This document shows, one piece after another, positions 40,521 through 60,854 of a stretch of 64,000 nt of DNA. The position numbers were made by a program, and so were the translations under genes. Position 1 is the first letter of the stretch. Every line of letters starts with the position of its first letter. Origin of the DNA: an uncultured Lachnospiraceae bacterium (GTDB lineage Bacteria; Bacillota; Clostridia; Lachnospirales; Lachnospiraceae); the NCBI GenBank assembly GCA_902773435.1, contig CACYEN010000151.1, forward strand, positions 1,195 to 65,194, in the 5' to 3' direction. The notes below the pieces were generated by a model. The model had not been told where the DNA came from. It worked only from the letters and a program-made list of their open reading frames with translations, and searched no databases.

Positions 40521-40546
40521 TGCCCTGAGGATAACAGGATAATCAC

Positions 40547-40578: not shown

Positions 40579-40594
40579 CTAGAGGGAAAATAAC

Positions 40595-41053: not shown

Positions 41054-41065
41054 AGGGGGAAGGAT

Positions 41066-42565
41066 ATGGACTATCTGTCAGCTATACAGCATGTGCTGAA
41101 CCCGGCTGTGCTCTTATTCATTCTCGCGGGCGTCATGGTCGGCCTTGTCGTGGGAACGCTGCCCGGCCTCACGTCCGTGATGGCGGTGTCGCTGATCACG
41201 CCGCTGACTTTCAAACTCGACAGCACCTATGGCTTCGCCATGCTGCTCGGAGTTTACAACTCGGCGATCTTCTCGGGAGGTATCTCCGCGATCGCGATCA
41301 ACACGCCGGGGACGCCGGCGTCCATCGCGCAGACATTTGACGGCTACTCGCTGTCGCGGCGGGGGAGAACCGGTTTCGCGCTGGGGGTGAACACGATCTA
41401 CTCCGTGTTCGGAGGCCTCTTCTCCACGGTCTGCCTCATGATCGCGTGTGAACCGCTCGCCAGGCTCGCCCTGCACTTCGGTTCCGCCGAGTACTTCTGG
41501 CTCGCCTTCTTCGGCCTCGCGATGATGATCTCCATCTCCCACGCGAATGTCGTGAAGGGACTTCTCGCAGGAGCGATCGGCCTTCTGCTGAGCACCGTCG
41601 GACTGGACCCGCTTCTCGGCAACAAGCGGTTCACGTTTGACAATGTGTCGCTGCTCAACGGCATCACGTTCATCCCGGTCATGATCGGCCTCTTCGGCAT
41701 CAGCGAGATGCTCTACCAGATGTACACGCACAAAAAGACTGACGAGCGCAGGGAAGAGGATATCGCGCACATGGGGGACAAGGAGCGCGTGCTCCCGACC
41801 GCGAAGGAACACAGAAGGATGACGCTGCCCGCCCTCCTCGGGTCGATTATCGGCGTGGTCGTCGGCGTCGTTCCCGGAACCGGCGGAGATATCTCCGCGC
41901 TGATCTCATGGGACGTCACGAAGAGGATTTCCAAACACCCGGAGGAGTACGGCAACGGCTCGATCGAGGGACTCGCCGCGACGAGCGCCTCGAACAACGG
42001 AGCGGTCGGCGGAGCCCTGACGACGGCTCTGGCGCTCGGAATCCCGGGCGACTCAAGCACGGCGGTTCTGCTCGGCGCGCTCACGATGTACGGGATGGTG
42101 ACCGGACCGACGCTGCTCACGAAGAGCGCGGACTTCGTCGGACGCCTCTATATTATCATGCTTGTCGCGAACCTGATCATCCTTCCGGTCGGTCTTCTCA
42201 CCGCGAAGGCGTGTATCAAACTGCTCTCGGTTAAATCGAACTACATCCAGATGGCCGTGCTGCTGATCTGCTGCATCGGAGCTTACTCGATGAACCGCTC
42301 CTACACCGACGTCATCATCATGTTTATCGCGGGAATCGCAGGTTTCTTCTTCCGTATGTACCAGTACCCGCTCGGACCGATGGTGCTCGGGCTCCTGCTC
42401 GGGGAGATGTGCGAGACGAACCTCCGGAGGACCCTCATGCTGTCCAACGGAAATCCGGTCCGCCTCATCAACACGCCGATCGCGATCGCTCTCATGATTC
42501 TTGTCGTGGCCGCGCTCGTGAGTCCGCTCATTTCCGATCTGAGGGCGAAAAAGAAAGCAAAGTAA
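41066..42565 (+). CDS. tctA: TTT large permease
   Basis: GTLPGL, AINTPGTPAS, ALGIPG. Confidence 0.95.
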   Translation: MDYLSAIQHVLNPAVLLFILAGVMVGLVVGTLPGLTSVMAVSLITPLTFKLDSTYGFAMLLGVYNSAIFSGGISAIAINTPGTPASIAQTFDGYSLSRRGRTGFALGVNTIYSVFGGLFSTVCLMIACEPLARLALHFGSAEYFWLAFFGLAMMISISHANVVKGLLAGAIGLLLSTVGLDPLLGNKRFTFDNVSLLNGITFIPVMIGLFGISEMLYQMYTHKKTDERREEDIAHMGDKERVLPTAKEHRRMTLPALLGSIIGVVVGVVPGTGGDISALISWDVTKRISKHPEEYGNGSIEGLAATSASNNGAVGGALTTALALGIPGDSSTAVLLGALTMYGMVTGPTLLTKSADFVGRLYIIMLVANLIILPVGLLTAKACIKLLSVKSNYIQMAVLLICCIGAYSMNRSYTDVIIMFIAGIAGFFFRMYQYPLGPMVLGLLLGEMCETNLRRTLMLSNGNPVRLINTPIAIALMILVVAALVSPLISDLRAKKKAK

Positions 42566-46269: not shown

Positions 46270-47532
46270 TTATACCAGCGCCGCGAGCTCCGGGAACACG
46301 CTGAGCCCGCGCTTCAGGATCCCGTTCATCGCCGCGATCGCGATGCCGTAGTTGGTGAACGGGATGCCCTGATCGACCGCGCACTTCATGCGGCAGACCA
46401 CCTCGCGGCTGTTGAGCATGCAGGCCCCGCAGTGAATGACGAGGGCGTAGGGACTGAGGTCCTCCGGGAAGGAGTTCCCGCTGCTCGTCTCGAACTCAAG
46501 GTCCGCGCCGGTCGTCTTTCTCAGTAGGTTGGGGATCTTGACCGTGCCGATATCCTCGCACTGCCTGTGGTGCGTACATCCCTCCGAGATCAGGACCCGG
46601 TCGCCGTCCCTGAGCCCGCCGATCTTCGCGACGCCCCTGACGGCTTCTTCAAGAAAGCCCCTGTAATTCGCCATCAGGATTGAAAATGACGTGAGCGGTA
46701 TATCCGCCGGCGTCTCCGCGGCCGCGAGGGCGAACACCTGGCTGTCGGTGATGACGACGGACGGCCTTCTCGCAAGCCCCGCCAGTGTTCCGCGAAGCTC
46801 CGTATCCCGCGTCACGATGGCCTGGGCCCCCCGGTCGAGAAGATCGCGGATGACCTGCTGCTGGGGGAGAATCAGGCGGCCCTTCGGAGCGGATTTGTCG
46901 ATCGGGACGACGAGGACGGCAAAATCTCCGGCGCCGACCGATTCCGGGACAATCCGCGCCGCGTCCGCTTCCTGGGGGACGATCCGGCTGATCCGGTTCT
47001 TCAGCTCCTCGATACCGGTTTTCTCAAGCGCGCTCACGAAGACGCAGCGGTCCGCGCAGTCGCGGAGCGCGCCCGCAGGGCTGACGGAGTCCGGGACCAG
47101 GCCGGCGGATTCCGCGGAGGCGGCTCCGGATGCCTCGAGCAGGTCCGCCTTGTTCCGCGCGATGAGGTAGGGGATCTTCTTCTCATCGAAGAGACGGATC
47201 AGCTCAAGATCGCATTCCGTGAGCGGCCTCGTAGCATCGGTGACCAGGACGGCGGCATCCGTCCTGTTGAGGATCTGTTTTGTCCTGCGGACTCTCAGGT
47301 CCCCGAGACTTCCGGAGTCGTCGAAGCCCGGAGTGTCGATGATGACGACGGGGCCGAGCGGCAGGAGCTCCATGGCCTTGCGCACGGGGTCCGTCGTGGT
47401 GCCGCGGATCTCCGAGACGACGGAGAGCTCCTGTCCGGTGACGGCGTTGACGAGGCTGGACTTTCCGGCATTTCTGAGGCCGAAGAAACCTATGTGAAGC
47501 CGTTCGGACGACGGTGTTTCGTTCATGCTCAT
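46270..47532 (-). CDS. hydF: [FeFe]-hydrogenase H-cluster maturation GTPase
   Basis: GLRNAGKSS, GTTTDPV, DTPG, NKAD, PKGRLILPQ, EGCTHH...IHCGAC cluster ligands; GGAGG RBS before 47532. Confidence 0.97.
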   Translation of the reverse strand: MSMNETPSSERLHIGFFGLRNAGKSSLVNAVTGQELSVVSEIRGTTTDPVRKAMELLPLGPVVIIDTPGFDDSGSLGDLRVRRTKQILNRTDAAVLVTDATRPLTECDLELIRLFDEKKIPYLIARNKADLLEASGAASAESAGLVPDSVSPAGALRDCADRCVFVSALEKTGIEELKNRISRIVPQEADAARIVPESVGAGDFAVLVVPIDKSAPKGRLILPQQQVIRDLLDRGAQAIVTRDTELRGTLAGLARRPSVVITDSQVFALAAAETPADIPLTSFSILMANYRGFLEEAVRGVAKIGGLRDGDRVLISEGCTHHRQCEDIGTVKIPNLLRKTTGADLEFETSSGNSFPEDLSPYALVIHCGACMLNSREVVCRMKCAVDQGIPFTNYGIAIAAMNGILKRGLSVFPELAALV

Positions 47533-47596
47533 CGCAGTGCCTCCTCTGGAGAATAAAGGGTACGGCGGCCGCTTAACGGCGGTCCCGCCTGTCCCA

Positions 47597-47625
47597 ATTC
47601 TGACATGAAGACCGGGATGTGTCAA
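47597..47625 (-). promoter_or_regulatory. hydF promoter
   Basis: TTGACA-17-CAGAAT with extended -10 TG, minus strand. Confidence 0.5.
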
Positions 47626-47680
47626 ACGGAACGGCTGAACGGGATGACCTGTAAATATGAGTGGCATTTTCGGAAATATA

Positions 47681-47942
47681 TGTTATGATGTATAGACGAA
47701 GCTTGACCGGAAAGGGGCGGAAGGCGCCTGACCGCGAAAGCAGTGTGACCGGGGGTGAAGGCCTCCGGATGAAGGAACGGCCGCCGGAAGAGGAGCGGTT
47801 TTTCAGGCGGAAAAAAGAGACGAACGATTAACCTGAGATTGAAACCCCGGTTGAGATCGAAGATGCGTTGGAACGGAAATGACGGCGCGGCCCGGCAGGG
47901 CTGCCGTTTTTTGGCGCATTCTTCGGAATGGGCCTCTTTTTT
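47681..47942 (+). promoter_or_regulatory. Extended -10 promoter and ~260 nt structured leader with terminator/antiterminator (riboswitch or attenuator candidate)
   Basis: TGtTATGAT at 47681-89; hairpins with U-tracts at 47882-47912 and 47913-47942; AAGATGCGTT (~47860) can sequester the 5' arm of the last hairpin. Confidence 0.5.
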
Positions 47943-47957
47943 ATGAAAGGATACGGC

Positions 47958-48203
47958 ATGAACAACAGGATCGCGATACTCGGCATCATCGTGGAAAAGC
48001 CCGAAGCGGGAAACCTTGTGCAGGAGCTGCTCCACAGCTGCGCGGCCCATATCGTCGGGCGGATGGGTATCCCCTACAGGGAGAAGGGTGTCAGCATCAT
48101 CAGCGTAGCCCTCGACGCGCCCGCGGATGTGATCAACACGCTCGCCGGCAGGATCGGCAGTCTGGACGGCGTGAGCGCGAAGGCGATCTACGCGAAAAAC
48201 TGA
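47958..48203 (+). CDS. TM1266-family putative [FeFe]-hydrogenase system regulator (ACT-like)
   Basis: RIAILGIIVE, IVGRMGIPY, IISVALDA...GRIGSLDGVSAK; 81 aa. Confidence 0.88.
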   Translation: MNNRIAILGIIVEKPEAGNLVQELLHSCAAHIVGRMGIPYREKGVSIISVALDAPADVINTLAGRIGSLDGVSAKAIYAKN

Positions 48204-48212
48204 GGAGAAGCC

Positions 48213-48968
48213 ATGAATCAGAATGCCTTGAAGATAGCAGTCTACGGAAAAGGCGGCATCGGAAAATCCACGATCTGTTCCGCCCTCTCCCTTGCGCTCG
48301 CGGAGAGAGGCCTTAAGGTGATGCAGATCGGCTGCGACCCGAAGGCGGATTCCACCATGTCCCTCCGCGCCGGCAGGCGGCTGCCGACGGTCCTCGCGAC
48401 GATGAGGGAGCGGAAAGACGATTTCTCCCTCGAAGACGTGTGCCTTGAGGGGGCCGGCGGGGTGATCTGCGTCGAGGCTGGCGGCCCGCTTCCCGGACTC
48501 GGGTGTGCGGGACGGGGAATCATCACGGCGCTCGAGAAGCTGAAGGCAAAGGGCGTCTACGGGCGCTACAGCCCGGACGCCGTGATCTACGACGTGCTGG
48601 GCGACGTCGTCTGCGGCGGCTTCTCCATGCCGATGAGGAGCGGCTTCGCCGACAGGGTTTACATCGTCACCTCCGGTGAGAATATGTCGATCTACGCGGC
48701 GGCGAATATCGCCTCGGCGGTCAGGAATTTCGGGGAGCGCGGCTACGCGGCCCTCGGAGGTTTTATCCTGAACCGCAGAGATGTCGAAAATGAGAGAGAA
48801 AAAGTCCTGGCGCTCTGCGGGGATTTCGATTCGGAGATCACGGGGGAGCTCCCGCTCTCGGAGAAGATCCGGGAGGCAGAGGCCCGGGGGAAATCCTTCA
48901 TGGAGCTCTTCCCTAAGAGCGAAGAGGCGGAATGCGTGAGAGCCCTCTCGCGGGCGATCTTCACGTGA
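48213..48968 (+). CDS. NifH/BchL/CfbC-like Fe protein (module 1)
   Basis: YGKGGIGKST, GCDPKADST, GGPLPGLGCAGRG, DVLGDVVCGGF. Confidence 0.95.
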   Translation: MNQNALKIAVYGKGGIGKSTICSALSLALAERGLKVMQIGCDPKADSTMSLRAGRRLPTVLATMRERKDDFSLEDVCLEGAGGVICVEAGGPLPGLGCAGRGIITALEKLKAKGVYGRYSPDAVIYDVLGDVVCGGFSMPMRSGFADRVYIVTSGENMSIYAAANIASAVRNFGERGYAALGGFILNRRDVENEREKVLALCGDFDSEITGELPLSEKIREAEARGKSFMELFPKSEEAECVRALSRAIFT

Positions 48969-49073
48969 CGGGAAGGGCCTGAGGGGGCAGAGAAGAGCGC
49001 GGATGAGGGCGCGGAACCGGAGTCTTTATGAGCGCGGGGAAGACGGGACAGGCCGGACGGCACGGAGAACCAG

Positions 49074-50402
49074 ATGCTGAGAAAGATCGGTGAAGAACTG
49101 AATACGGAAGGCGTGATGACGACTGCGGGGGAGGCGGCATTTCCGGCCCCGTTCCCGGAGGAGCTGGAGTTCAGCTCCCCGGCAAGGGGGACCTGGAACA
49201 TCGTGCACACCGGCCTCCTGATTCCGGAGGCCCACGAGATCTTCGTGTGCGCGCGGGGCTGCCTGCGGGGCGTCGTCCTGACCGCCGCGGAGGCGAACGC
49301 CCTTCACCGGTATTCCGCGGTCCAGATCCGCGAGGAAAATGTCCTCGACGGCTCAATGGAACAGCTGATGGTCGGAGGCGTCGCCGACGTCCTGAGGAAG
49401 CTTCCCTACAGGCCGAGGGCGGTGCTGCTCTTTATCAGCTGTCAGCATTTTTTCCTGGCCTACGACCAGGAATATGTCTTCAGAACCCTGAGGGAGCGGT
49501 TCCCGGACATCCGCTTCGCCGACTGCTACATGATCCCGACGCTCCGGAAGAGCGGGATCACGCCGGACCAGAAGATGCGGATCCAGCTCTACAGCATGCT
49601 GGACCGGGTGGAGAAGGATCCCCGGAAAATCAACCTCATCGGCAGCAACATCGCGGTCAGCGGGAGCTGCGAATGGGTCCTCTGGCTGAGACGGCACGGG
49701 TTTGAGCTCAGGACGCTGCAGGCGTGCCGGACATTTGACGAGTACCTGGCGATGGGGGAGTCATTTCTGAATCTGTACTGCGAACCGCTCGCCCACATGG
49801 CGGCGCGGTCCCTCGAGGAGCGGCTCGGCCAGGAGGCCCTGTACCTGCCCTTCGTCTTCAATCCGGGGGAACTGGATGAGATTTACCGGGGGTTCGCCCG
49901 GCGTCTCGGTCTCCCGGAACCGGATTTCGGCGAGGAGAAGCGCAGGGCGGACGCGGCGATGCGGCGGGCGAAGGAGCTCATCGGCGACACCCCGGTGGCG
50001 GTGGACTACACCTTTACGTTCCGGATCCTGAGCTTTGTCAGGATGCTGCTCGCGTACGGCTTCAACGTGACGGACATCTACGCGGACAGCTTCAGCCCGG
50101 AGGAACGGGATGACTTTGAGAGGATCCGCCGGGACCGCCCGGGGATCCGGATCTGGGCGACCAACCGCCCGAAGATGCGGTTCGCGAAGCGGGAGAGCGG
50201 GGAGAAGGTGCTCGCGGTAGGACAGAAGGCCGCGTATTTCAAGGGTACCGGACATTTTGTAAATGTCGCCGAGAGCGGCGGATTCTACGGCTATGACGGC
50301 ACGGAGCGGATCGCCGCCCTGATGGAAGAGGCCTTCATTGAGGAGAAGGACACGCGGGACCTCGTCCAGAGGAAAGGTTACGGGTGTCCGAGCTGCATAT
50401 AG
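49074..50402 (+). CDS. Nitrogenase component-1-like subunit A (module 1)
   Basis: VCARGCLRG, E.NVLDG, FISCQHFFLAYD, YLP, FYGYDG pattern; C-terminal CPSC. Confidence 0.85.
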   Translation: MLRKIGEELNTEGVMTTAGEAAFPAPFPEELEFSSPARGTWNIVHTGLLIPEAHEIFVCARGCLRGVVLTAAEANALHRYSAVQIREENVLDGSMEQLMVGGVADVLRKLPYRPRAVLLFISCQHFFLAYDQEYVFRTLRERFPDIRFADCYMIPTLRKSGITPDQKMRIQLYSMLDRVEKDPRKINLIGSNIAVSGSCEWVLWLRRHGFELRTLQACRTFDEYLAMGESFLNLYCEPLAHMAARSLEERLGQEALYLPFVFNPGELDEIYRGFARRLGLPEPDFGEEKRRADAAMRRAKELIGDTPVAVDYTFTFRILSFVRMLLAYGFNVTDIYADSFSPEERDDFERIRRDRPGIRIWATNRPKMRFAKRESGEKVLAVGQKAAYFKGTGHFVNVAESGGFYGYDGTERIAALMEEAFIEEKDTRDLVQRKGYGCPSCI

Positions 50403-50439
50403 ACGCGTCCGGACACACCGGGCGGAAGGAGAGCGCGGG

Positions 50440-51681
50440 ATGAGGCAGGTGACAGGACTCACAAGTACATATTCCTCCGATGAATTCGGGATCTGTTCTG
50501 CGCTCTTCGAGCTCGGCGGCCTCGTTGTGATGCACGACGCGTCCGGCTGCAACTCCACCTACACGACGCACGACGAGCCGAGATGGTACGACATGGACAG
50601 CATGGTCTATATCTCGGCTGTCTCGGAGATCGAGGCCATCATGGGCGACGACGACAAGCTGATCCGGGATGTCGTCTCCGCGGCGCGGGAACTGAAACCC
50701 CGGTTCACGGCTCTCATCGGGGCCCCGATCCCCTACATGATCGGAACCGACCTCCCCGCCGTCGCGGGGATCGTGGAGGAGGAGACGGGGATCCCGTCGA
50801 TCGGGTTTCCGGCGAACGGCATGGGCCTCTATACGAAGGGCATCTCGATGGCGCTCGCGGCGGTCACGGAGCGGTTCGCGCAAGGAGAGACGGGGAGGAG
50901 CAGGGAGCCGTCGATGAACGTCATCGGGCTCACACCGCTAGATTTCTCCCTCAACGGGACCGCGGAGTCGATCTGGAGATGGGCGGAGGCGCTGGGATTC
51001 CGAAGGGGCGCCTGCATGGCGATGGGAAGCAGCCTCGACGAGATCTCCCGGGCCGGGGAGGCGCACGTGAACCTCGTGGTCTCCTACGGAGGCCTGGAGG
51101 CGGCGAGGATCCTCGAGAGGAGGTACGGCACGCCCTGGATCGCCGGCGTCCCGTTCGGAAAGGCCTTCGCGGAGCGGCTCGGGCAGCTCGTTCTCGAGGC
51201 GGCCGGGACCGGGGGCAGGGAGATGGCGGCATACCGCAGTGTGCCGCGCGCCGGGGCTGCGGGGCGGGATCCCGCGCCGAACCCGGCCCGGGACGCGGCA
51301 CGGGGGAAGGAATCCCCGCTCCTCGTGGTCGGGGAGAGCGTGTACAGCGCCTCCTTCGCGGCAGCGGTCGAGCTCGAGCTGAATATCCCGACAAGGGTGC
51401 TCTGCCCGGTGGATACCGAGGATGTTCTGCTCAGGGAGGGGGACCGAAGGACGCCCGAGGAGGACGACCTCATCGAGGCGTTCCGCGGGGCGGAGCGCGT
51501 GGCCGCGGACCCGCTGTTCCGGCAGCTTGTACCGGAGACCGCGGAGTTCTTCGACCTGCCCCACGAGGCATTTTCCGGGAGGATCTACGACAGGGTCAAC
51601 CGGAACATGGTGGATGTGCCGCTCGACGGATTTATTTTCGGGGGAACAAAGGCGCCGCGCGGGAAGGGACCGCGCGGCTGA
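50440..51681 (+). CDS. Nitrogenase component-1-like subunit B (module 1)
   Basis: HDASGC, EIEAIMGDDDKL, MIGTDL, AHVNLVV..GLEAARILERRYGTPW; GGAG RBS before 50440. Confidence 0.85.
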   Translation: MRQVTGLTSTYSSDEFGICSALFELGGLVVMHDASGCNSTYTTHDEPRWYDMDSMVYISAVSEIEAIMGDDDKLIRDVVSAARELKPRFTALIGAPIPYMIGTDLPAVAGIVEEETGIPSIGFPANGMGLYTKGISMALAAVTERFAQGETGRSREPSMNVIGLTPLDFSLNGTAESIWRWAEALGFRRGACMAMGSSLDEISRAGEAHVNLVVSYGGLEAARILERRYGTPWIAGVPFGKAFAERLGQLVLEAAGTGGREMAAYRSVPRAGAAGRDPAPNPARDAARGKESPLLVVGESVYSASFAAAVELELNIPTRVLCPVDTEDVLLREGDRRTPEEDDLIEAFRGAERVAADPLFRQLVPETAEFFDLPHEAFSGRIYDRVNRNMVDVPLDGFIFGGTKAPRGKGPRG

Positions 51682-51697
51682 AGGAGTACATGCGAAG

Positions 51698-52474
51698 ATG
51701 CTGAAACTTGCGATATACGGAAAAGGCGGCATAGGAAAATCAACGACGACGGGCAATCTCGCCGCGGCGTTCGCCGTGCTCGGGAAGCGCGTGATCCAGA
51801 TCGGCTGCGACCCCAAGGCGGACTCCACGATCAACCTGCTCGGCGGGACGCCGGCGGTCTCCGTGATGGACTACATGCGGGAGCACGACGAGGAGCCGGA
51901 GCGGCTCGACGAGATCGCGAAGGAGGGCTTCGGCGGCGTGCTCTGCATCGAGACGGGCGGCCCCACGCCGGGCCTCGGCTGCGCGGGGAGAGGCATCATC
52001 ACCACGTTCAGCCTGCTCGAGGACCTTGAGCTCTTCGAGACGAGGGATCCGGACGTGGTGCTCTACGACGTGCTCGGGGACGTCGTCTGCGGCGGCTTCG
52101 CCGCCCCGATCCGCGAGGGTTACGCCGAGGATATCCTGATCGTCACCTCGGGCGAGAAGATGGCGCTCTACGCCGCGAACAATATCTGCCAGGCGGTGAA
52201 AAACTTCGAGGACAGAGGGTACGCGTCGGTGAAGGGAATCATTTTAAACCGCCGGAACGTGGAAAATGAGCGGGAGAAGGTCGAGGCGTTCGCCGCGGAG
52301 CGGGGGCTCCCGATCCTCGCGGACATACCGCGGAGCGACGACATCATCCGGTTCGAGGACGAGGGGAAGACCGTCATAGAGGGCGGGCCCGACCTGCCGG
52401 TCAGCAGAATCTACCTGAACCTGGCGAGGCGGCTGCTCGCGGACGAAGAGGGACAGAAAGGACAGGACACATAA
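51698..52474 (+). CDS. NifH/BchL/CfbC-like Fe protein (module 2)
   Basis: YGKGGIGKST, GCDPKADST, GGPTPGLGCAGRG, DVLGDVVCGGF; AAGGAG RBS before 51698. Confidence 0.95.
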   Translation: MLKLAIYGKGGIGKSTTTGNLAAAFAVLGKRVIQIGCDPKADSTINLLGGTPAVSVMDYMREHDEEPERLDEIAKEGFGGVLCIETGGPTPGLGCAGRGIITTFSLLEDLELFETRDPDVVLYDVLGDVVCGGFAAPIREGYAEDILIVTSGEKMALYAANNICQAVKNFEDRGYASVKGIILNRRNVENEREKVEAFAAERGLPILADIPRSDDIIRFEDEGKTVIEGGPDLPVSRIYLNLARRLLADEEGQKGQDT

Positions 52475-52479
52475 ACAAG

Positions 52480-53784
52480 ATGGGAAATGACGCCTACTAC
52501 ATCACGGCCGGCGAACTCGCGGCGGCGGGCAGCGGACAGATCCCGGACGAACTCCGGTCCGCCCGGCACCTGATCTACAGCTCCCCGGCGACGCTCGCCT
52601 TCAACTCCCCCGGGGCCCAGGGCTTCGGCGTGAAGAGGGCGGGGCTCGCCGTCCCCGGCTCGGTGATGCTGCTCGTCTCCCCCGGGTGCTGCGGCCGGAA
52701 TACGACACTGCTGACGGAGAGACGGGAATACGACGGGAGATTCTTCTTCCTGCTCATGGATGAGACGGACATCGTCACCGGCCGCCACCTCCGGAAGATT
52801 CCGGACGCGGTCCGGGAGGTTGTCGCGGCCTGCGCGGAGCGGCCGACCTCGGTGATGATCTGCATCACCTGCGTCGACGCGCTGCTCGGCACGGATATGG
52901 ACAGGGTCTGCAGGAAGGCCTCCGAGGCGGCGGGGGTCCCGGTGCTCCCCTGCTACATGTACGCCCTGACCCGCGAGGGCAGGATCCCGCCGATGGCGGC
53001 GGTGAGGAAGACGGTCTACCAGCTCCTCGAAAAGAGGAAGAAGAGGGCGTCGAGCGTCAATATCCTGGGGTCGTTTACCCCCTATGACGACGACTCCGAG
53101 CTGTACGGCATTCTCCGGGGGATCGGCATCAGGAAGATCCGGGAGATCTCGAGATGCGAAGATTTTGAGTCCTATCTGGAGATGGCGGAGGCCAACTTCA
53201 ACCTCGTCCTCAACCCGGAGTCGCGCGTGGCCGCGGCGGATCTTGAGAAGAGGCTCGGCATTCCGTTCATCGAGATGACGAGGGTCTACCAGATCGACAA
53301 GATCCACCGCCAGTATGAGCTGTTCGGCGCCGCGCTCGGCGTGATGGTCGACGACTCGGCCTGGATGGCGGAGGCGGAAGCCGCGGTCGCGGATTTCAGG
53401 GAGAGGTATCCGGACGCGGCATTCTCGGTCGGAGAGTGGCTGAACGCCGATCCGTTCGAGCTCTCGCTCGCCCTCCTCCGGTACGGGTTCCGCGTCAATG
53501 AGATCTTCGGGACGGTGACGGACGTGAACCGGATCTACATCCGGAGGATTGCGGAGATCAGCCCGGAGACGAGGATCTACACGAATCTCTCGCCGACCAT
53601 GCTCTTCTACGACTGCGCGGGCGGGGAGGACGTCATCACGCTCGGCAAAGACGCGGGCTATTATCATCCGGACGGCGTGAACGTCCCCTGGAACGACGAG
53701 CAGCAGCCGTTCGGCTACCGCGGACTCACCCGCCTCTTTGAGAGGCTTGCGGAGGCAGCCGGGAAAGCGGAGGGCATATCATGA
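52480..53784 (+). CDS. Nitrogenase component-1-like subunit A' (module 2)
   Basis: SPGCCGRN, ETDIVTG, ITCVDALLGTD, AEANFNLV, LEKRLGIPF, FGYRG. Confidence 0.87.
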   Translation: MGNDAYYITAGELAAAGSGQIPDELRSARHLIYSSPATLAFNSPGAQGFGVKRAGLAVPGSVMLLVSPGCCGRNTTLLTERREYDGRFFFLLMDETDIVTGRHLRKIPDAVREVVAACAERPTSVMICITCVDALLGTDMDRVCRKASEAAGVPVLPCYMYALTREGRIPPMAAVRKTVYQLLEKRKKRASSVNILGSFTPYDDDSELYGILRGIGIRKIREISRCEDFESYLEMAEANFNLVLNPESRVAAADLEKRLGIPFIEMTRVYQIDKIHRQYELFGAALGVMVDDSAWMAEAEAAVADFRERYPDAAFSVGEWLNADPFELSLALLRYGFRVNEIFGTVTDVNRIYIRRIAEISPETRIYTNLSPTMLFYDCAGGEDVITLGKDAGYYHPDGVNVPWNDEQQPFGYRGLTRLFERLAEAAGKAEGIS

Positions 53785-54884
53785 GAGGACTGATCAGATA
53801 CCTGTCCCCGTTCGCGCCCGACCAGTCGGGCGCCTCCGGGGTGTTCTACGATCTCGGCGGCCTGATCGTCATCTGCGACGCGGGCGGCTGCACCGGCAAC
53901 ATCTGCGGCTTTGACGAGCCGAGATGGTTTTCCCGCAGGAGCGGCATCATGAGCGCGGGGCTCCGCGACATGGACGCCATCCTCGGGCGGGACGACCAGC
54001 TTGTGGAGAAGCTGAAGTCAGCCGTCACACGCCTCGGCGCGCCATTCGCGGTTCTCATCGGGACGCCTGTTCCGGCGGTGATCGGGACGGATTTCCGGGC
54101 ACTCGGGAAGATGGCCGGGAAGCGCTGCGGAATCCCGGTCCTGACGGTCTCCTGCAAGGGGACCGGCCTCTACGACGAGGGCGAGGAGGAGGCGTATCTC
54201 AGTTTGATGGAGGCATTTGCCGGCGGGAGCGGCGGCGGGGATGATGCCGGGGATGCCGCTCCCCTGAAAGGACTCGTCGGCGTCATCGGCGCGACGCCGC
54301 TCAGCACGGACACCGCGATGCCGCCCGAGCGGCTCTCCTCGGCGCTCGGGACGGACCGCCTCCTCTGCTACGGGGCGGCCGGGGGCCTCTCCGCCGTGCG
54401 AAGGGCTCCCCGCGCCGAGAAGAACCTTGTGATCTCGCCCTCGGGGATCCGCGCCGCGGAGTACCTGAGGGAACGCTTCGGGACCCCTTACGAGGCCGCA
54501 TATCCGCTGGTCCCGCGCCCGGTCATCGAGACGTATCCGGAGCTTCGGGGGAAGAGAGTCCTCGTCGTCCACCAGCAGTTCGCCGCCAACGCGGTGAGGG
54601 AGGGCCTTGCCGGCGCGGGGTGCGAGGACGTGACGTGCGCGACATTTTTTATGATGAAAGAGGAGTACGCGAAGCCCGGAGACGCACGCTTCTCCACCGA
54701 GGAGAGTTTCACCCGCTTCGTGGAGGGGGGAGGATTTGACGCCGTCATCGGCGACCGCTTCCTGAGCCGCGCCGTCCGGGGATTCCGGGGGAGGTGGATT
54801 CACATGCCTGAGTTCGCGGTGTCGGGAGAGTGCGCCGACGTCGGGGAAACCGGGGAGGGCCCTGAAAGGAAGTCCGGAACATGA
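53781..54884 (+). CDS. Nitrogenase component-1-like subunit B' (module 2)
   Basis: CDAGGC, DAILGRDDQL, VIGTDF, AEKNLVI..GIRAAEYLRERFGTPY; ATGA overlaps on both sides. Confidence 0.85.
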   Translation: MRGLIRYLSPFAPDQSGASGVFYDLGGLIVICDAGGCTGNICGFDEPRWFSRRSGIMSAGLRDMDAILGRDDQLVEKLKSAVTRLGAPFAVLIGTPVPAVIGTDFRALGKMAGKRCGIPVLTVSCKGTGLYDEGEEEAYLSLMEAFAGGSGGGDDAGDAAPLKGLVGVIGATPLSTDTAMPPERLSSALGTDRLLCYGAAGGLSAVRRAPRAEKNLVISPSGIRAAEYLRERFGTPYEAAYPLVPRPVIETYPELRGKRVLVVHQQFAANAVREGLAGAGCEDVTCATFFMMKEEYAKPGDARFSTEESFTRFVEGGGFDAVIGDRFLSRAVRGFRGRWIHMPEFAVSGECADVGETGEGPERKSGT

Positions 54885-57235
54885 CGGATCAGACGCTTAA
54901 GATTCCCACAAATCACATAAGGATGTACGGGATCGTGCAGGGCGTCGGCTTTCGCCCGTTCGTGAGCCGCGCCGCGATGAGATGCGGCATCCGCGGGAGC
55001 GTCGCCAACCGGGGCTCCTACGTCGAGATCTTCGCGCAGGGGGACGCGGAGGCGATGGGGAGGTTCCTGGACATCCTGAAAAATGATCCCCCCGAACGCT
55101 CCGTCGTCCTCAAGATTGACGTCTCGGAGTGCGGGGCAGCCGCGTTCGATGCATTTGACATCATCGAGAGCGAAAAGGAGACAGGCGATATCTTCGTGTC
55201 CCCCGACATCGCGACCTGCCCGAAGTGCAGGGAGGAGCTCTACAGCCCGGGAAACCGGCGGTACATGCATCCGTTCATCAACTGCACGGCCTGCGGGCCG
55301 AGGCTCACGATCCTCGACTCCATGCCCTACGACCGGGTCAGGACCAGCATGGGGGAATTCCCGATGTGCCCGGAGTGCGCGCGGGAGTACACGGATCCGG
55401 CGACTCGGAGGTACGACGCCCAGCCGGTGTGCTGCCCGGACTGTGGCCCGGAGGTGTACCTGGCCGGAAGGAGGGAGCGCGGCCGGGAGGCAATCACGGC
55501 GGCGAGGCGCGCGATCATGGAGGGAAAGATCGTCGCGGTCAAGGGTATCGGCGGCTTCCATCTCTGCTGCGACGCGTCGCGCGGGGAGGCTGTCGGGAGG
55601 CTGAGGGAGCTCAAGAGACGGCCGGCGAAGCCGTTCGCGGTCATGATGAGGGACCTCGGCGCGGTCCGCAGGGAGTGCGTGATCGGGCCGGAGATGGAGG
55701 CGGAACTGGACAACCACCAGAAGCCGATCATCCTGCTCCCGAAGAGGGCGGGCGGGCGAATTGCGGACGCCGTCGCGCCCGACAATCCGAACGTCGGCGT
55801 GATGCTGCCGTACGCGCCGGTGCAGATGCTTCTGTTCGACTACGACGACGGCCTTGAGATGACGACGGACATGTTTGTGATGACGAGCGGAAACATCTCG
55901 GGCGCGCCGATCTGCCGCACCGACGACGAGGCGGTCCGCGAGATCAGCTCCTTCTGCGATCTGATCCTTACGCACAACCGGAAGATCCGCCTGAGGGCCG
56001 ACGACTCGGTCATGGACTTCTACCGGGGAAAGCCCTATATGATCCGCCGCTCGAGGGGCTACGCGCCGCTCCCGTTCATGACGGCGCGGGAATACGCGCA
56101 CTGCGTGCTGGCGGTCGGGGGGGAGCTGAAAAACACCTTCTGCATCGGGAAAAACCAGCTCTTCTACCCGTCCCCCTACGTCGGGGACATGGAGGACATC
56201 CGGACCGTCGAGGTCCTTAGGGAGTCCATCCGCCGCATGTCGGAACTTCTGGAGGCGGACATCGAAGCGGTGGCGTGCGACCTGCATCCGAAGTATAATA
56301 CGACTGTCGTGGCAGAGGAACTCTGTCTCCCGGTCTTCCGTGTACAGCATCACTACGCGCACATCCTGTCCTGCATGGCCGAGAATGACGCCGACGGTCC
56401 CGTGATCGGCGTCTCGTTCGACGGGACCGGATACGGGACGGACGGGACGATCTGGGGCGGGGAGATCATGATCGCGGACCGGGCCGGCTTCACGAGGGAG
56501 GCGAGCATCCGCCCGTTCCCCCAGGCCGGAGGAGACGCCTCGGCCCGGGAGGGATGGAGAATCGCGGCCTCCATGATCAACAGTCTCTGCCCGGAGGAGG
56601 AAGCCGCGGACATCGCGGAGCGCCTGTCCATATGCGACGGGAGGGAGGCGCGGATCATCCGGAAGATGTGCGAAAAGCGCATAAACTGCGTCACCTCGAC
56701 GAGCGCGGGACGGCTCTTCGACGCGGTCAGCGCGGTGCTCGGCATACGCAGGAGCTCGACGTTCGAGGGCGAGGCCTCGATCGCGCTCGAGTTCCGCGCG
56801 GAGGAATGGGAGGCGGAGGCGAAACCCGGACTCACGGGCGGGGTGTTCGCGGATGTTCCCCGTGAACCCGAACCGGGGGAGGGGGACGGCCGCCTGATCC
56901 TTCCGACGGACCGGCTCTTCGACCGGATCCTGAGGGCCCGCCTCGCCGGCGGCGGCGCTGGAGAACTCGCGTATCTCTTTCACTTTGAGCTCGCGCGGCA
57001 GATCGCCAGCGCCGTCGGGCGGATCTCGGATCGAAGCGGGATCCGGGTATGCGCTCTTTCCGGAGGCGTCTTCCAGAACAGGCTGCTTCTCCGGCTGTGC
57101 GACGGCATGCTGAGGAAGGCTGGATTCGAGGTGCTCCTTCACAGCCTCGTCCCCCCGAACGACGGAGGGATCGCGCTCGGCCAGGCGCTGGCGCTGACGG
57201 AGGCGATGGAGAGGGGGACGTTTCCGCCGTCGTAA
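54881..57235 (+). CDS. hypF: Carbamoyltransferase HypF
   Basis: GIVQGVGFRPFV acylphosphatase domain, two CxxC-x-CxxC zinc fingers, KGIGGFHL, RRSRGYAP, QHHYAH, PPNDGGIALGQ. Confidence 0.98.
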   Translation: MTDQTLKIPTNHIRMYGIVQGVGFRPFVSRAAMRCGIRGSVANRGSYVEIFAQGDAEAMGRFLDILKNDPPERSVVLKIDVSECGAAAFDAFDIIESEKETGDIFVSPDIATCPKCREELYSPGNRRYMHPFINCTACGPRLTILDSMPYDRVRTSMGEFPMCPECAREYTDPATRRYDAQPVCCPDCGPEVYLAGRRERGREAITAARRAIMEGKIVAVKGIGGFHLCCDASRGEAVGRLRELKRRPAKPFAVMMRDLGAVRRECVIGPEMEAELDNHQKPIILLPKRAGGRIADAVAPDNPNVGVMLPYAPVQMLLFDYDDGLEMTTDMFVMTSGNISGAPICRTDDEAVREISSFCDLILTHNRKIRLRADDSVMDFYRGKPYMIRRSRGYAPLPFMTAREYAHCVLAVGGELKNTFCIGKNQLFYPSPYVGDMEDIRTVEVLRESIRRMSELLEADIEAVACDLHPKYNTTVVAEELCLPVFRVQHHYAHILSCMAENDADGPVIGVSFDGTGYGTDGTIWGGEIMIADRAGFTREASIRPFPQAGGDASAREGWRIAASMINSLCPEEEAADIAERLSICDGREARIIRKMCEKRINCVTSTSAGRLFDAVSAVLGIRRSSTFEGEASIALEFRAEEWEAEAKPGLTGGVFADVPREPEPGEGDGRLILPTDRLFDRILRARLAGGGAGELAYLFHFELARQIASAVGRISDRSGIRVCALSGGVFQNRLLLRLCDGMLRKAGFEVLLHSLVPPNDGGIALGQALALTEAMERGTFPPS

Positions 57236-57339
57236 GGGCATGGAGATACAGAGAGCGGCGGACAGGTAACGGGACGCGGAGAACGGAAATACAGGCTTTG
57301 AAACAGGAAAAAGATCAGTAAGAGACGGAGGAATAAGTT

Positions 57340-57546
57340 ATGTGTGTAGGGCTTGCGGCAAAAGTCGTCGGAATCAGGAACGGGACCGCGCTTGTGGACG
57401 CTAACGGGGCGAAGCGGGAGGTCTCCGCGCAGCTTCTCGAGGACCTTGAGCCCGGCGACTACGTGATGGTGCACGCGGGCGTCGCGATCGCGAAGATCAC
57501 GGACGACGACGGGGATGAGACGGACGCGCTCATGGAGATGCTCTGA
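57340..57546 (+). CDS. hypC: HypC chaperone
   Basis: N-terminal MC(VGLAAK), GDYVMVHAGVAI. Confidence 0.95.
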   Translation: MCVGLAAKVVGIRNGTALVDANGAKREVSAQLLEDLEPGDYVMVHAGVAIAKITDDDGDETDALMEML

Positions 57547-57599
57547 TAATAATGACAGCCATGGCCGCCGACGCGGCCGTGTTGAAAGCGGGACGGATA

Positions 57600-58670
57600 A
57601 TGACAGATATCATGGAAAAGAGAGAGCCGGCGAGAAAGTCGGCGCGGGAGATCATTGAGAGCTACGACGGCCCGAAGCTCCGGATCATGGAGGTCTGCGG
57701 GACACACACTCACGAGATCTTCCGGCTGGGCATCCGGTCCCTTCTTCCCGATACGATCGAGCTGGTCTCAGGCCCGGGATGCCCGGTCTGCGTGACGCCG
57801 GTCGGCTTTGTGGACGAGGCGGTGATGCTCGCGCTTGAGAAGGGGGCGGTGGTCTGCACGTTCGGCGACCTGATCCGTGTCCCGGGGACGAAGATGTCAC
57901 TGGCGGGGGCGCGCGCCGAGGGCGCGAGGATCCGCATCGTGTACGCGCCGGACGACGCGGTGGAGTACGCCGCCGCGCATCCTGAGGAGCAGGTGGTCTT
58001 CCTGGCAGTCGGATTCGAGACGACGACCCCGGCCGCCGCGCTGGCCGTCAGGAGGGCGCGGGACGAGAAGATCGAAAACTTCTCGATCCTCACCGCGAAC
58101 AAGACGATGCCGAACGCGTATCTCGCGCTCAGGGGAAGCGCCGACGCCTTCCTCTATCCTGGCCACGTGAACGCGATCACGGGGGAGACGGAGTGCAGAA
58201 GGCTTGCGGAGGAGAGCGGCATCTCCGGCGTCATCGCCGGTTTCACCGCGAAAGAGCTCCTCACCGCGCTGGCCGTGATTATAGAGAAGTCGAAGACCGG
58301 GGAGCCGTTTTTCGTGAACTGCTACCCGAGGGTCGTGCGCCCGGAGGGCAACCCCGCCGGGCTCAGCCTGATCCGCGAGGTGATGGAGCCCTGCGACTCC
58401 GAGTGGAGGGGGCTCGGCATCATCCCGATGTCCGGCCTGAGGCTCAGGGAGGAGTACCGCGGGTATGACGCCCGGGTCAGGTTCGCGCTGCCGAAGATCG
58501 AGGGACGCCCCAATCCCGCGTGCCGCTGCGGGGAGGTTCTTCAGGGGAAATGCCGCCCCTCCGATTGCCGCGTATTCGGAAAGGGGTGTACGCCCGAGCA
58601 TCCGGTCGGCGCGTGTATGGTGTCGAGCGAGGGCGCCTGCGCGGCCTATTACCAGTACGGCGCGAAGTGA
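57600..58670 (+). CDS. hypD: HypD Fe(CN)2CO scaffold
   Basis: MEVCGTH, GPGCPVC, GFETT, PGHV, C-terminal Cys cluster ending GACMVSSEGAC. Confidence 0.98.
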   Translation: MTDIMEKREPARKSAREIIESYDGPKLRIMEVCGTHTHEIFRLGIRSLLPDTIELVSGPGCPVCVTPVGFVDEAVMLALEKGAVVCTFGDLIRVPGTKMSLAGARAEGARIRIVYAPDDAVEYAAAHPEEQVVFLAVGFETTTPAAALAVRRARDEKIENFSILTANKTMPNAYLALRGSADAFLYPGHVNAITGETECRRLAEESGISGVIAGFTAKELLTALAVIIEKSKTGEPFFVNCYPRVVRPEGNPAGLSLIREVMEPCDSEWRGLGIIPMSGLRLREEYRGYDARVRFALPKIEGRPNPACRCGEVLQGKCRPSDCRVFGKGCTPEHPVGACMVSSEGACAAYYQYGAK

Positions 58671-58749
58671 ACGGCGGCCGGGAGGAGGGTATCCGAACCG
58701 GGCAGCCATTTTTGAGAAATCGACAGTTATGAAGGAGTGTGGGACTTAA

Positions 58750-59754
58750 ATGGACAGAAGAGTAACCCTGGCGCACGGCGCGGGAGGAAAGCAGACCGGA
58801 GAGCTGATCCGCGAGGTTTTCAGGAAGCATTTTTCCAATCCGGAATTTACCGCGGACGACGCGGCCGTCCTCGATCTCGGGACGGGCAGGATCGCGATGA
58901 CGACGGACGGTTTCATCGTCTCCCCGTACAGGTTTCCTGGCGGCAACATCGGAAAGCTCAGCATCTGCGGGACCGTCAACGACCTGGCGTGCATGGGCGC
59001 GAAGCCGATGTACATGACCTGCTCGTTCGTCATCGAGGAGGGATTCCCGATGGACGAGCTGGAGGAGATCGCCGCGGCGATGGAGAAGACCGCCGCGGAG
59101 GCGGGCGTGCGGATCGTGGCGGGCGACACGAAGGTCGCCGGAAAGGGGCAGGTTGACCATGTCTTTATCACGACGACCGGCATCGGGGCGCTGACGGAGG
59201 GCGTGTCCCTGTCGGGCGCGAAAGCCCGCCCGGGCGACGCGGTCATCGTGACCGGCGATGTCGGCCGGCACGGCTGCACGATTCTCCTCGCCAGGGAGGA
59301 GCTGGGAATCGACGCCGACGTGAAGAGCGACTGTGCGCCGCTCTCCGGGCTCGTGGAATCCGTGCTGAGGGCGACGAAAGACATACACGTGATCAGGGAC
59401 GCGACGCGGGGCGGCGTCGGCACCGTCCTCTACGAGATCGCGGAACAGAGCGGCGTCGGCGTGCGCGTCGACCAGGCTGCGGTGCCCGTGGACGGGGCTG
59501 TCGGCGGCGTGTGCGGCATGCTGGGACTCGACCCGCTCTATCTCGCCAACGAGGGGACCATGGTCGTCGTCGCGCCGAAGGAGCGCGCGGAGAGCGTGCT
59601 CGAAGCGCTTCACTCCCACCCGTACGGTGAGAAGGCCGCCCTCATCGGCGAGATCACCGGGGACAACGCGGGCAAAGTCATCGTCACGACCGAGATCGGC
59701 ACGGAGACCCTTCTTCCCCAGCCGGGGGGAGAACTGCTGCCGAGGATCTGCTGA
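58750..59754 (+). CDS. hypE: HypE carbamoyl dehydratase
   Basis: LAHGAGG, GTVNDL, GDTKV, RDATRGG, ANEG, C-terminal LPRIC. Confidence 0.98.
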   Translation: MDRRVTLAHGAGGKQTGELIREVFRKHFSNPEFTADDAAVLDLGTGRIAMTTDGFIVSPYRFPGGNIGKLSICGTVNDLACMGAKPMYMTCSFVIEEGFPMDELEEIAAAMEKTAAEAGVRIVAGDTKVAGKGQVDHVFITTTGIGALTEGVSLSGAKARPGDAVIVTGDVGRHGCTILLAREELGIDADVKSDCAPLSGLVESVLRATKDIHVIRDATRGGVGTVLYEIAEQSGVGVRVDQAAVPVDGAVGGVCGMLGLDPLYLANEGTMVVVAPKERAESVLEALHSHPYGEKAALIGEITGDNAGKVIVTTEIGTETLLPQPGGELLPRIC

Positions 59755-59786
59755 GGCGGACGGCCGCCTCACAAGCGGGGTTTTGA

Positions 59787-60854
59787 ATGAACGTGAATCT
59801 TTCAGAGAAAATCATATTAAGGCTCGCCGAAGAAGGGGACCTTCCCGATTCTGAACTTCTCGCGCTGATCGGGAGCGGGGAGTTCGACGGCCTGCTGTTC
59901 CGCCTCGCCGACCTGAAGCGCCGCGAGCGCTACGGGGACGAGGTCTTCGTCAGGGGTCTCATCGAATTCTCCAATTACTGCAGAAATGACTGCTACTACT
60001 GCGGAATCCGCCGGAGCAACGGCAGCGCGGAGCGCTACCGCCTGACGAAGGAAGAGATCATGGAGTGCGCCGCCTCGGGGTACGGGCTCGGCTACAGGAC
60101 ATTTGTGCTTCAGAGCGGCGAGGATCCGTATTATACTGATGACAGGATCTGTGAGATCGTGGCCGCGCTCCGCGCCGCCCACCCGGACTGCGCGATCACG
60201 CTGTCGATCGGGGAGAAGCCTAAGGAGAGCTACAGGGCTTATTTCGAGGCCGGGGCGAACCGCTACCTGCTCCGCCACGAGACCGCGGACAGCGGCCACT
60301 ACGGGAAACTTCACCCGGCATCCATGAGCCCTGACAACAGGAAGCGCTGTCTCTTCGACCTGAAGGAGATCGGCTACCAGGTCGGCGCGGGTTTCATGGT
60401 CGGGACGCCCGGCCAGACAGCGGAGAACCTCGTCAGCGACTTCCGGTTTATGCAGGAACTCAGGCCGGACATGATCGGGATCGGCCCGTTCATGACGCAC
60501 AGCCAGACGCCGTTTGCCGGCTGCCCGAACGGGAGCTTTCCCCTCACGCTGCGGCTGCTCGCGGTCACGAGGCTGATGTTCCCGTACGCCCTGATCCCGG
60601 CGACGACCGCGCTCGGGACGATTCATCCGCTGGGAAGGGAGCAGGGGCTTAAGGCGGGCTGCAACGTCGTGATGCCGAATCTCTCGCCGGTGAGGTTCAG
60701 GAAGAAGTACGAGCTCTACGACAACAAGATCTGCACGGGAGAGGAGTCGGCCGAGTGCCGCTCCTGCCTGGAGGCCCGCGTCGCGGCCGCCGGCTACAGG
60801 GTGGTGACGGACGTCGGGGACGTGAGGCGGGATCCCGGAGCCGCCGGGAGATAA
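59787..60854 (+). CDS. hydE: Radical SAM H-cluster maturase HydE
   Basis: RGLIEFSNYCRNDCYYCGIR, LQSGED, YLLRHET, MIGIGPF, PATTAL, NVVMPN, YELYDNK and C-terminal Cx7Cx2C. Confidence 0.92.
   Translation: MNVNLSEKIILRLAEEGDLPDSELLALIGSGEFDGLLFRLADLKRRERYGDEVFVRGLIEFSNYCRNDCYYCGIRRSNGSAERYRLTKEEIMECAASGYGLGYRTFVLQSGEDPYYTDDRICEIVAALRAAHPDCAITLSIGEKPKESYRAYFEAGANRYLLRHETADSGHYGKLHPASMSPDNRKRCLFDLKEIGYQVGAGFMVGTPGQTAENLVSDFRFMQELRPDMIGIGPFMTHSQTPFAGCPNGSFPLTLRLLAVTRLMFPYALIPATTALGTIHPLGREQGLKAGCNVVMPNLSPVRFRKKYELYDNKICTGEESAECRSCLEARVAAAGYRVVTDVGDVRRDPGAAGR

Follow-up and report, generated by a model that had tools for sequence, protein, structure and literature searches.

RESULTS

Nitrogenase-like, hyp, and hyd genes in one locus

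We analyzed a 64,000-nucleotide stretch (hereafter the window) of contig CACYEN010000151.1 from assembly GCA_902773435.1 of an uncultured Lachnospiraceae bacterium, in which two nitrogenase-like gene trios, hypFCDE, hydE, hydF, and a TM1266-family gene lie together at positions 46270..60854. The CO and CN ligands of [FeFe]-hydrogenases are attributed to HydG, and [FeFe]-hydrogenases, [NiFe]-hydrogenases, and nitrogenases are regarded as maturing by separate pathways. Genome comparisons suggest that this cluster, in which the three kinds of genes meet, very probably takes the place of HydG. An earlier note, made from the sequence of this stretch alone, had read here the run TM1266, nifH-like, A, B, nifH-like, A', B', hypFCDE, and hydE with a divergent hydF. 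All 13 genes were recovered as intact, stop-free open reading frames (ORFs), as were the ATGA overlaps at 53781-84 (A2/B2) and 54881-84 (B2/hypF) and the 32-base gap between hypE and hydE that the note had reported (Table 1).

HydF, TM1266, HypF, HypC, HypD, HypE, and HydE all passed their NCBIfam cut-offs. Both the P-loop and the CxH-x-HCxxC motif were seen in HydF, and both zinc fingers, DLHP, and HHxAH in HypF. Among the trio proteins, H1 and H2 matched Pfam Fer4_NifH yet scored below the NCBIfam cut-offs for nifH, CfbC, BchL, and BchX. Similarly, all four A and B proteins matched Pfam Oxidored_nitro; B1, A2, and B2 scored far under the cut-offs for NifD and NifE, and A1 had no NCBIfam match. 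The BchB/CfbD family cut-offs were missed by all trio proteins tested. The two trios appear from their sequences to be old paralogs, B1 and B2 sharing 35% identity over 246 residues next to the H1/H2 and A1/A2 values in Table 1. Start codons were refined, using ATG position and purine-rich upstream sequence, for hydF (47532), TM1266 (47958), B1 (50440), and H2 (51698); the true start of hypD may be about 57600 rather than that of the longest ORF.

Table 1. Genes of the cluster, with positions in the window and the profile matches that identify their products
Gene	Product	Position	Strand	Match and remarks
hydF	H-cluster scaffold GTPase, 420 aa	46270..47532	-	TIGR03918, 528.8 bits (cut-off 325.55); divergent from operon
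TM1266	TM1266-family protein, 81 aa, named putative iron-only hydrogenase regulator	47958..48203	+	TIGR03959, 98.9 bits (cut-off 60.8)
H1	NifH-like Fe protein, trio 1	48213..48968	+	PF00142; below nifH and CfbC cut-offs
A1	Nitrogenase component-1-like subunit, common to synthesis and importer forms	49074..50402	+	PF00148; nitrogenase/NifEN/DPOR fold
B1	Partner subunit of A1, 413 aa	50440..51681	+	PF00148
H2	NifH-like Fe protein, trio 2, 258 aa	51698..52474	+	PF00142; 50% identity to H1
A2	Component-1-like subunit of Hyp-linked trio	52480..53784	+	PF00148; 26% identity to A1
B2	Partner subunit of A2	53781..54884	+	PF00148; ATGA overlaps with A2 and hypF
hypF	Carbamoyltransferase	54881..57235	+	TIGR00143, 730.4 bits (cut-off 466.1)
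hypC	Iron chaperone	57340..57546	+	TIGR00074, 62.3 bits (cut-off 48)
hypD	Scaffold	57552..58670	+	TIGR00075, 393.9 bits (cut-off 192.8); longest ORF
hypE	Carbamoyl dehydratase	58750..59754	+	TIGR02124, 429.3 bits (cut-off 251.6); C-terminal end PRIC
hydE	Radical-SAM maturase	59787..60854	+	TIGR03956, 531.9 bits (cut-off 254.6)

The G+C content of the cluster, about 62-66%, is near that of the remaining window, and the flanking genes are sugar-use genes. A sequence scan gave five promoter-like sites (1.9 +/- 1.5 in shuffles) and 14 terminator-like sites (8.4 +/- 2.8 in shuffles); two of the promoter-like sites, recognized by consensus match only, point in opposite directions between hydF and TM1266. 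Four RNA runs yielded short contigs, mostly of 150-350 bases at a depth of 2-8, with DNA carry-over uncontrolled. Elsewhere in the window, a beta-lactamase-family (PF00144) protein, of a family that includes esterases, is encoded at 32440-33624 downstream of a glycoside hydrolase family 3 gene, and two ordinary tripartite tricarboxylate transporter sets (TctC/TctA) lie within sugar-use operons at 20051-23455 and 39549-42565.

Two forms of the cluster recur in Bacillota genomes

Scanning species-representative genomes with an A1 alignment gave 313 confirmed relatives, and the best 80 of these 313 loci were fetched; their titles, where given, were all Bacillota-type. The two-trio form combines H1-A1-B1 with the block H2-A2-B2-hypF-hypC-hypD-hypE; either of the two may come first, and TM1266, hydE, and hydF are attached in some loci but not in others. 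Near the trios of these best 80 loci, hypF was found in 42, hydF in 24, and hydE in 17, many of the loci without hypF being ended by contig ends or belonging to the second, importer form. Median spacings were -4 bases for A2-B2 (58 pairs), 4 for B2-hypF (49 pairs), and -1 for hypC-hypD (43 pairs), and trio 2 was accompanied by hyp genes wherever contigs were long enough. The synteny, on which the earlier note had made its reading depend, is thus conserved: because the block recurs in other genomes with such tight spacings, it is more than a chance arrangement.

The importer form (15-16 of the 80 loci) has the order TM1266-FecCD permease-ABC ATPase-hydE-H1-A1-B1-binding protein-hydF, and trio 2 and the hyp genes are absent. 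Its ABC ATPase is often fused to a TM1266 domain, and its binding protein is a Peripla_BP_2 protein of strongly conserved sequence. Within the A1 clade, the A1 proteins of this form make up one group (27 rows, FastTree support 0.81, with two-trio rows randomly subsampled). Loci of this form are L062-L070, L072, L074, L077, L078, L082-L084, L116-L120, L122-L124, L126, L135, and L211. A single-trio form adjoining hydG was considered and rejected; the genes in the gap were those for FecCD, the ABC ATPase, and the binding protein.

Several variants bear on how the trio proteins work together. A and B are naturally fused (A1-B1 or A2-B2, about 760-840 aa) in L040, L049, L052, L053, L055, L131, L149, and L152, which supports their being partner subunits. 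In the two-trio loci L058, L071, L073, L076, L081, L129, L132, L136, L137, L140, L143, L146, L149, and L210, there is no H1 beside A1, and a single Fe protein may serve both pairs. In one genome, G268 (L143:10119-14882), the genes immediately upstream of H2, on its strand, are a HydB-like and a HydA gene.

For counts within the family, we used 290 genomes that passed a 90% completeness filter, about one per genus. The A1 profile matched 36 of them: 18 with the two-trio form (three split over contigs), 10 with the importer form, one cut at a contig end (G235), six with distant trios plus an importer, and one other. The distant trios, whose A subunit is 27-32% identical to A1, carry the same kind of importer, and five of these six family genomes lack HydE and HydF, which suggests that such trios originally served to reduce an imported metal complex. 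Distant-trio loci are L142, L144, L145, L147, L148, L150, and L194; in L194, hydF is adjacent.

The cluster and HydG rarely share a genome

HydG was present in 127 and HydF in 155 of the 290 family genomes. The cluster occurred in 27 of the 31 genomes with HydF and without HydG, in one of the 124 with both (G293, importer form), and in one of the 132 with neither (G245). Fisher's test for exclusion between cluster and HydG gave 7e-25, a value that is overstated since genera are not independent. By form, HydG was found in 0/18 two-trio and 1/10 importer-form family genomes, and HydF in 28 of the 29 family carriers. HydE, tested in 72 of the 290 genomes, was present in all 29 carriers and in 15/15 HydG-bearing controls, in 0/18 controls lacking HydF and HydG, and in one of the six distant-trio genomes, the one that bears HydG.

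The pattern extends beyond this sample across Clostridia. For a second set of 50, 36 two-trio and 14 importer-form genomes were hand-picked from those of the 80 loci for visible gene content; HydG passed its cut-off in none of the 36 and in four of the 14. Sampling 96 genomes from the order of G040 gave four matches, with HydG over the cut-off in none. The class sample (119 of 120 genomes scored) gave three matches, one of which repeats G353; the other two, G496 (two-trio) and G530 (importer), come from two further families and have HydF and no HydG. Exclusion is also seen in the single-contig genomes G301 and G256, which are 100% and 99% complete. Overall, this near-complementarity with HydG lends strong comparative support to the alternative H-cluster route that the earlier note had put forward.

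Carrier HydE proteins look ordinary and nearly all carriers encode [FeFe]-hydrogenases

The best PDB match of the cluster HydE was HydE itself (E 6e-96), and its C-terminal Cx7Cx2C motif was seen; many importer-form HydE proteins are without this motif. Comparing carrier HydE with HydE of HydG-bearing genomes revealed no group-diagnostic column. In quick trees made without bootstrap, HydE from two-trio and HydG-bearing genomes were interleaved, and three groupings with an SH-aLRT of 98 place a HydG-bearing genome as sister to two-trio genomes, a pattern consistent with repeated swaps between HydG and the cluster. Given such ordinary HydE proteins in carriers, what the cluster supplies is most likely the usual substrate of HydE. 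PF02906 genes were present in 35 of the 36 two-trio genomes of the second set, and the best PF02906 match showed the three H-cluster motifs in 30/30 genomes inspected, the first mostly as TSCSP and not TSCCP.

The hyp genes belong to the cluster

HypD was found in 47 and a [NiFe] large subunit in 31 of the 290 family genomes, and 16 of the 17 genomes with HypD and without the large subunit are two-trio carriers. No [NiFe] large subunit was found in 16/18 family and 34/36 second-set two-trio genomes, the other two of the 36 having one; nor was HypD found in any of the 10 importer-form family genomes. The two family carriers that do have a [NiFe] enzyme contain a second hypCDE set beside it. The HypD of the window is 59-83% identical to other cluster HypD proteins and 41-47% identical to ten [NiFe]-linked ones, from which cluster HypD differs at 14 diagnostic columns, e.g., YPGHVNA. 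Cluster HypC is also distinct from [NiFe]-linked HypC. The functional residues are retained, HypD aligning with 2z1d at CGxH, GPGCPVC, GFETT, PGHV, and the C-terminal cysteines, and HypC keeping C2 and H45 invariant (54 rows). These counts and sequence features indicate that the hyp genes of the cluster are dedicated to it.

The nitrogenase-like proteins probably hold simple iron-sulfur clusters

H1 and H2 both retain the P-loop and both cluster cysteines, and in H1, GKGGIGKS, GCAG (C98), and VVCGG (C134) are invariant (90 rows). Invariant or nearly invariant residues were also seen in the component-1-like subunits: C59, C63, C123, and H125 in A1 (99-100%, 99 rows), which also has a C-terminal CxxC; H32, C37, and H44 in B1 (74 rows), where C37 aligns with the NifN HGxxGC cysteine; C70, C71, C128, and C131 in A2 (64 rows); and C37 and C42 in B2 (59 rows). 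Predicted models of A1 and A2 (pLDDT 84.8 and 85.5) matched chains of nitrogenase, NifEN, DPOR, and MAR; identities were 12-18%, and none of these chains stood out as a close relative. The A2 model and ChlB gave a Z of 23.7 and a root mean square deviation of 3.8 over 380 aligned residues.

Profile matches of the component-1 proteins were NifE and NifD. In the profile alignments, P-cluster positions are occupied by two cysteines in the A subunits (C71 and C131 of A2, C63 and C123 of A1) and by one, C37, in B1, so that the six-cysteine P-cluster set is lacking. The position of the FeMo-cofactor cysteine of NifD holds another residue, and the region of the His ligand lies outside the alignments. 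One [4Fe-4S] cluster per pair has been described for DPOR, CfbD, and group VI proteins in the available text of a review (PMC13474568). By analogy, invariant C59 of A1 and C70/C128 of A2, together with the P-cluster-position cysteines, would provide ligands enough for one such cluster per pair, and the prediction for each A/B pair is a simple [4Fe-4S] cluster like that of DPOR or CfbD and no FeMo-type cofactor.

Inventory of the source genome

The source assembly (G000) is 88.9% complete in 185 contigs. As the earlier note had stated for the locus, HydG is missing: none was found in the whole assembly at this completeness, the sole TIGR03955 match being HydE at 60 bits (cut-off 312). Likewise, no [NiFe] large subunit was found in the assembly, nor was NifB, which was over the cut-off in none of five further genomes either. 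The case that the earlier note had named as refuting, hydG plus a complete [NiFe]-hydrogenase elsewhere in the genome, was thus not encountered at this completeness. Hydrogenase genes are present. Three PF02906 matches correspond to two genes, a 502-residue frame on contig C50 and a second gene divided between the ends of C42 and C150, with an 83-base overlap of these contigs; the genes show the H-cluster motifs TSCSPGW, MPCTAKKYE, and EIMGCPGGCINGGG. The hypA and hypB genes lie on a separate contig, C62 (L005, G000:C62:14237-17572), adjoining a large iron-sulfur oxidoreductase-like gene, and no [NiFe] enzyme was found. This hypB is putative, being named from its sequence; the pair possibly serves another nickel client. 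CO dehydrogenase was considered as a general source of CO and rejected, since it was over the cut-off in only one of five carriers and was not found in the source genome.

A related gene order in a model acetogen

In eight acetogenic Clostridium genomes, the available text of a 2022 paper reports hydE and hydF in all eight, hydG in three, and hypCDEF without hypA or hypB in five (PMC9431212). That text gives no straightforward explanation for the missing hydG, and its main text has nitrogenase only in a reference. In the available part of a transposon table of C. autoethanogenum, the consecutive rows CLAU_0351-0360 list two component-1 genes, nifH1, hypE, hypD, hypC, hypF, two component-1 genes, and nifH2, and no entry is named hydG (PMC9004356). 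This order is that seen in G301, G081, G077, G275, and G353; the C. autoethanogenum cluster is known here by gene names and order only, and a homolog search from the divergent A2 of G076 reached no named Clostridium species. C. autoethanogenum also has a [NiFe]-hydrogenase, and its hyp genes may serve both. During growth on CO, insertions fell from 14 to 2 in CLAU_0352, from 9 to 1 in nifH1, and from 17 to 4 in hydF, against a roughly twofold fall for many neighbors, in counts that carry no statistics (PMC9004356).

DISCUSSION

Position among known systems

The cluster shares parts with several characterized systems. Like the HydG/HydE/HydF system, it has HydE, HydF, and TM1266 proteins above their cut-offs, its HydE is ordinary, and its carriers encode hydrogenases with H-cluster motifs; unlike that system, it has ten other genes where HydG would be expected. 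Its HypC, HypD, HypE, and HypF proteins are intact with their catalytic motifs, as in the [NiFe] HypCDEF system, whereas the client large subunit is mostly not found, hypA and hypB are not in the block, and HypD has its own diagnostic columns. With DPOR/COR (group V), CfbCD (group IV-B), and group VI, the cluster shares an Fe protein and the component-1 fold, no more than four P-cluster-position cysteines per pair, and the lack of a FeMo-cofactor cysteine and of NifB, following criteria in the available text of PMC13474568. It differs from them in its 12-18% identity to solved members, its scores below the family cut-offs, the absence of tetrapyrrole genes from the block, and a context of hydrogenase maturation. 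Two paralogous component-1 pairs in one operon resemble the scaffold-plus-catalyst layout of nitrogenase NifHDK/NifEN and MarHDK; however, the six-cysteine P-cluster set, the FeMo-cofactor cysteine, and NifB are lacking, and each pair has its own Fe protein. The trios belong to the nitrogen-fixation-like superfamily by their component-1 fold and by a NifH-type Fe protein that has the P-loop and both cluster cysteines. Most likely, the cluster acts like HydG in the pathway, yet belongs neither to the HydEFG nor to the Hyp/[NiFe], nitrogenase, or DPOR/CfbCD systems. We found no description of it in full text, in a search that excluded subscription journals and bioRxiv supplements, and the available text of a 2026 review of nitrogen-fixation-like systems mentions neither HydE, HydF, nor C. 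autoethanogenum (PMC13474568).

A putative HydG-independent route to the H-cluster

The cluster is real, conserved, and functionally tied to H-cluster maturation. Judging from sequence and co-occurrence, we consider it probable that it provides a HydG-independent supply of an Fe(CO)2(CN) synthon to HydE and HydF and so stands in for HydG in the maturation of [FeFe]-hydrogenases. According to the available text of PMC11736057, [Fe(Cys)(CO)2(CN)] is made from tyrosine by HydG and handed to HydE, and HydF then adds the bridge; HypE and HypF make cyanide from carbamoyl phosphate, and HypC and HypD hold Fe(CO)(CN)2, according to that of PMC6802093. Turning the Hyp product into the HydE substrate would require a second CO, the loss of one CN, and a cysteine. 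How the two trios might share this work we propose only tentatively. Trio 2 stays with the hyp genes and is therefore assigned to a first module (H2-A2-B2 plus HypFCDE, kept as one block), which would build a stable Fe-CO-CN complex, X; its low-potential reductase would supply the extra CO from CO2 or the carbamoyl carbon. Fe proteins alone can reduce CO2 or CO, as stated in the available text of PMC9571451. Trio 1 is common to the importer form and is therefore assigned to converting X, whether made or imported: H1-A1-B1, the second module, would reductively loosen X, strip the surplus cyanide, and let cysteine bind, giving the HydE substrate, which ordinary HydE and HydF would then convert into the di-iron H-cluster.

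Importer-form genomes, without HypD and mostly without HydG, need an outside source of CO and CN. Replacement of trio 2 and HypFCDE by an importer suggests salvage of a shared intermediate, and this form is probably a salvage variant that would take up X through its iron-chelate-type ABC transporter and keep only this second module, H1-A1-B1. The wider picture is plausible, with considerable doubt attached: a second, HydG-free biosynthesis of the H-cluster in anaerobic Clostridia, in which nitrogenase-like, ATP-driven reductases would make and remodel an Fe-CO-CN complex from the [NiFe] Hyp scaffold, a complex shared like a vitamin in the gut that some species would make and others import by a dedicated ABC transporter and finish with the second reductase.

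Alternative explanations

The earlier note had also raised the possibility that the nitrogenase-like proteins house a new Fe-CO/CN cofactor. Here, the Hyp proteins would load Fe-CO-CN into the A/B proteins, which would be the end enzymes, and HydE and HydF would serve that cofactor and not HydA. The compatible part of this idea is structural: beyond the P-cluster-position cysteines, the conserved C59, H125, and C-terminal CxxC of A1, C70 and C128 of A2, H32 and H44 of B1, and C42 of B2 could bind more than one [4Fe-4S] cluster. Moreover, cluster HypD and HypC differ from the [NiFe]-linked proteins, and hydrogenase genes are frequent even without maturases. However, the near-perfect complementarity with HydG is left unexplained. 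Neither the lack of HydG in every two-trio genome counted (0/18 and 0/36), nor the filling of 27 of 31 HydG gaps, nor ordinary HydE sequences would be predicted, and the HydB-HydA pair directly upstream of H2 in G268 also speaks against it; we regard this explanation as unlikely.

Alternatively, HypFCDE alone, with cellular CO, might feed HydE and HydF, the trios having a supporting role, for example freeing iron or sulfur reductively from a compound that is imported. HydE and HydF without HydG gave about 1% activation, raised by free CO and CN (available text of PMC9431212), and the characterized relatives MAR and ISR cleave C-S bonds (available text of PMC13474568). Distant trios with the same kind of importer, five of six in family genomes without HydE and HydF, fit such a role as well. 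Against this, importer carriers keep HydE and HydF without HypD and mostly without HydG, so that trio 1 must process the compound that supplies CO and CN, and trio 2 is always with hyp genes where contigs are long enough, which leaves this second explanation quite improbable. An assemblage of independent blocks, with hyp genes for a missed [NiFe]-hydrogenase, hydG lost to assembly gaps or ThiH-like, and unrelated trios, would accord with the incomplete source assembly and its hypA/hypB on another contig, with hydE and hydF being often unlinked from the trios, and with the 27 of 50 second-set genomes that have only sub-cut-off TIGR03955 matches (166-204 bits). It is largely refuted by the family co-occurrence counts and the separate hypCDE sets that [NiFe] enzymes bring with them; in addition, the pattern persists in the two single-contig genomes, and 19 of the 50 genomes as well as the source genome have no TIGR03955 match at E 1e-30. 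We therefore consider it highly improbable.

Several observations weigh against replacement of HydG by the cluster. Chemically, HypCD yields one CO and two CN, the reverse of the HydE substrate, and the conversion is unexplained. PF02906 genes were present in 15 of the 18 controls without HydE, HydF, and HydG; hydrogenase genes are thus common without maturases, and carrying one does not show that carriers mature it. (These controls include G053, G058, G064, G068, G070-G072, G083, G091, and G094, and about ten gave strong scores.) In the canonical route, the glycine-cleavage H-protein is needed for the H-cluster bridge, and it was strong in only three of five carriers tested. The importer form tolerates HydG in the 4/14 and 1/10 genomes noted above. 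Furthermore, four family genomes with HydF and without HydG lack the cluster. In one of these, G104, hydF is split, and neither HydE nor a hydrogenase was matched; the others, G198 (L196), G249 (L197), and G306 (L198), have HydE, HydF, and a hydrogenase gene without HydG or the cluster, reflecting a possible third route or assembly gaps. In G198, a hydrogenase of three genes lies with hydE, a DUF2284 gene, and hydF; in G249, TM1266 and an NMT1-type ABC transporter precede hydF.

C. autoethanogenum contributes two further points of this kind. A HydG with an atypical motif has been proposed there in the available text of PMC9431212; by locus-tag arithmetic, it may be CLAU_0667, annotated as a SPASM-domain protein. 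On CO, hydrogenase CLAU_2721 is essential, and most cluster genes, hydE, and hydF are non-essential, according to the available part of PMC9004356.

Implications

If replacement of HydG by the cluster is correct, 27 of the 155 HydF-bearing genera of the family, about a sixth, would use another route to the H-cluster, and nitrogenase-like enzymes would gain a function in carbonyl and cyanide chemistry. The unexplained absence of hydG from industrial acetogens (available text of PMC9431212) would likewise gain a candidate answer. According to the available text of PMC13474568, the main barrier to assigning functions to nitrogenase-like proteins is that tractable hosts and informative gene context are missing; for this cluster, both exist, C. 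autoethanogenum being a host with genetic tools. In addition, the way in which anaerobes form the CO ligand on HypCD may come to light through this route. The importer form, for its part, points toward gut bacteria salvaging an organometallic cofactor precursor from one another.

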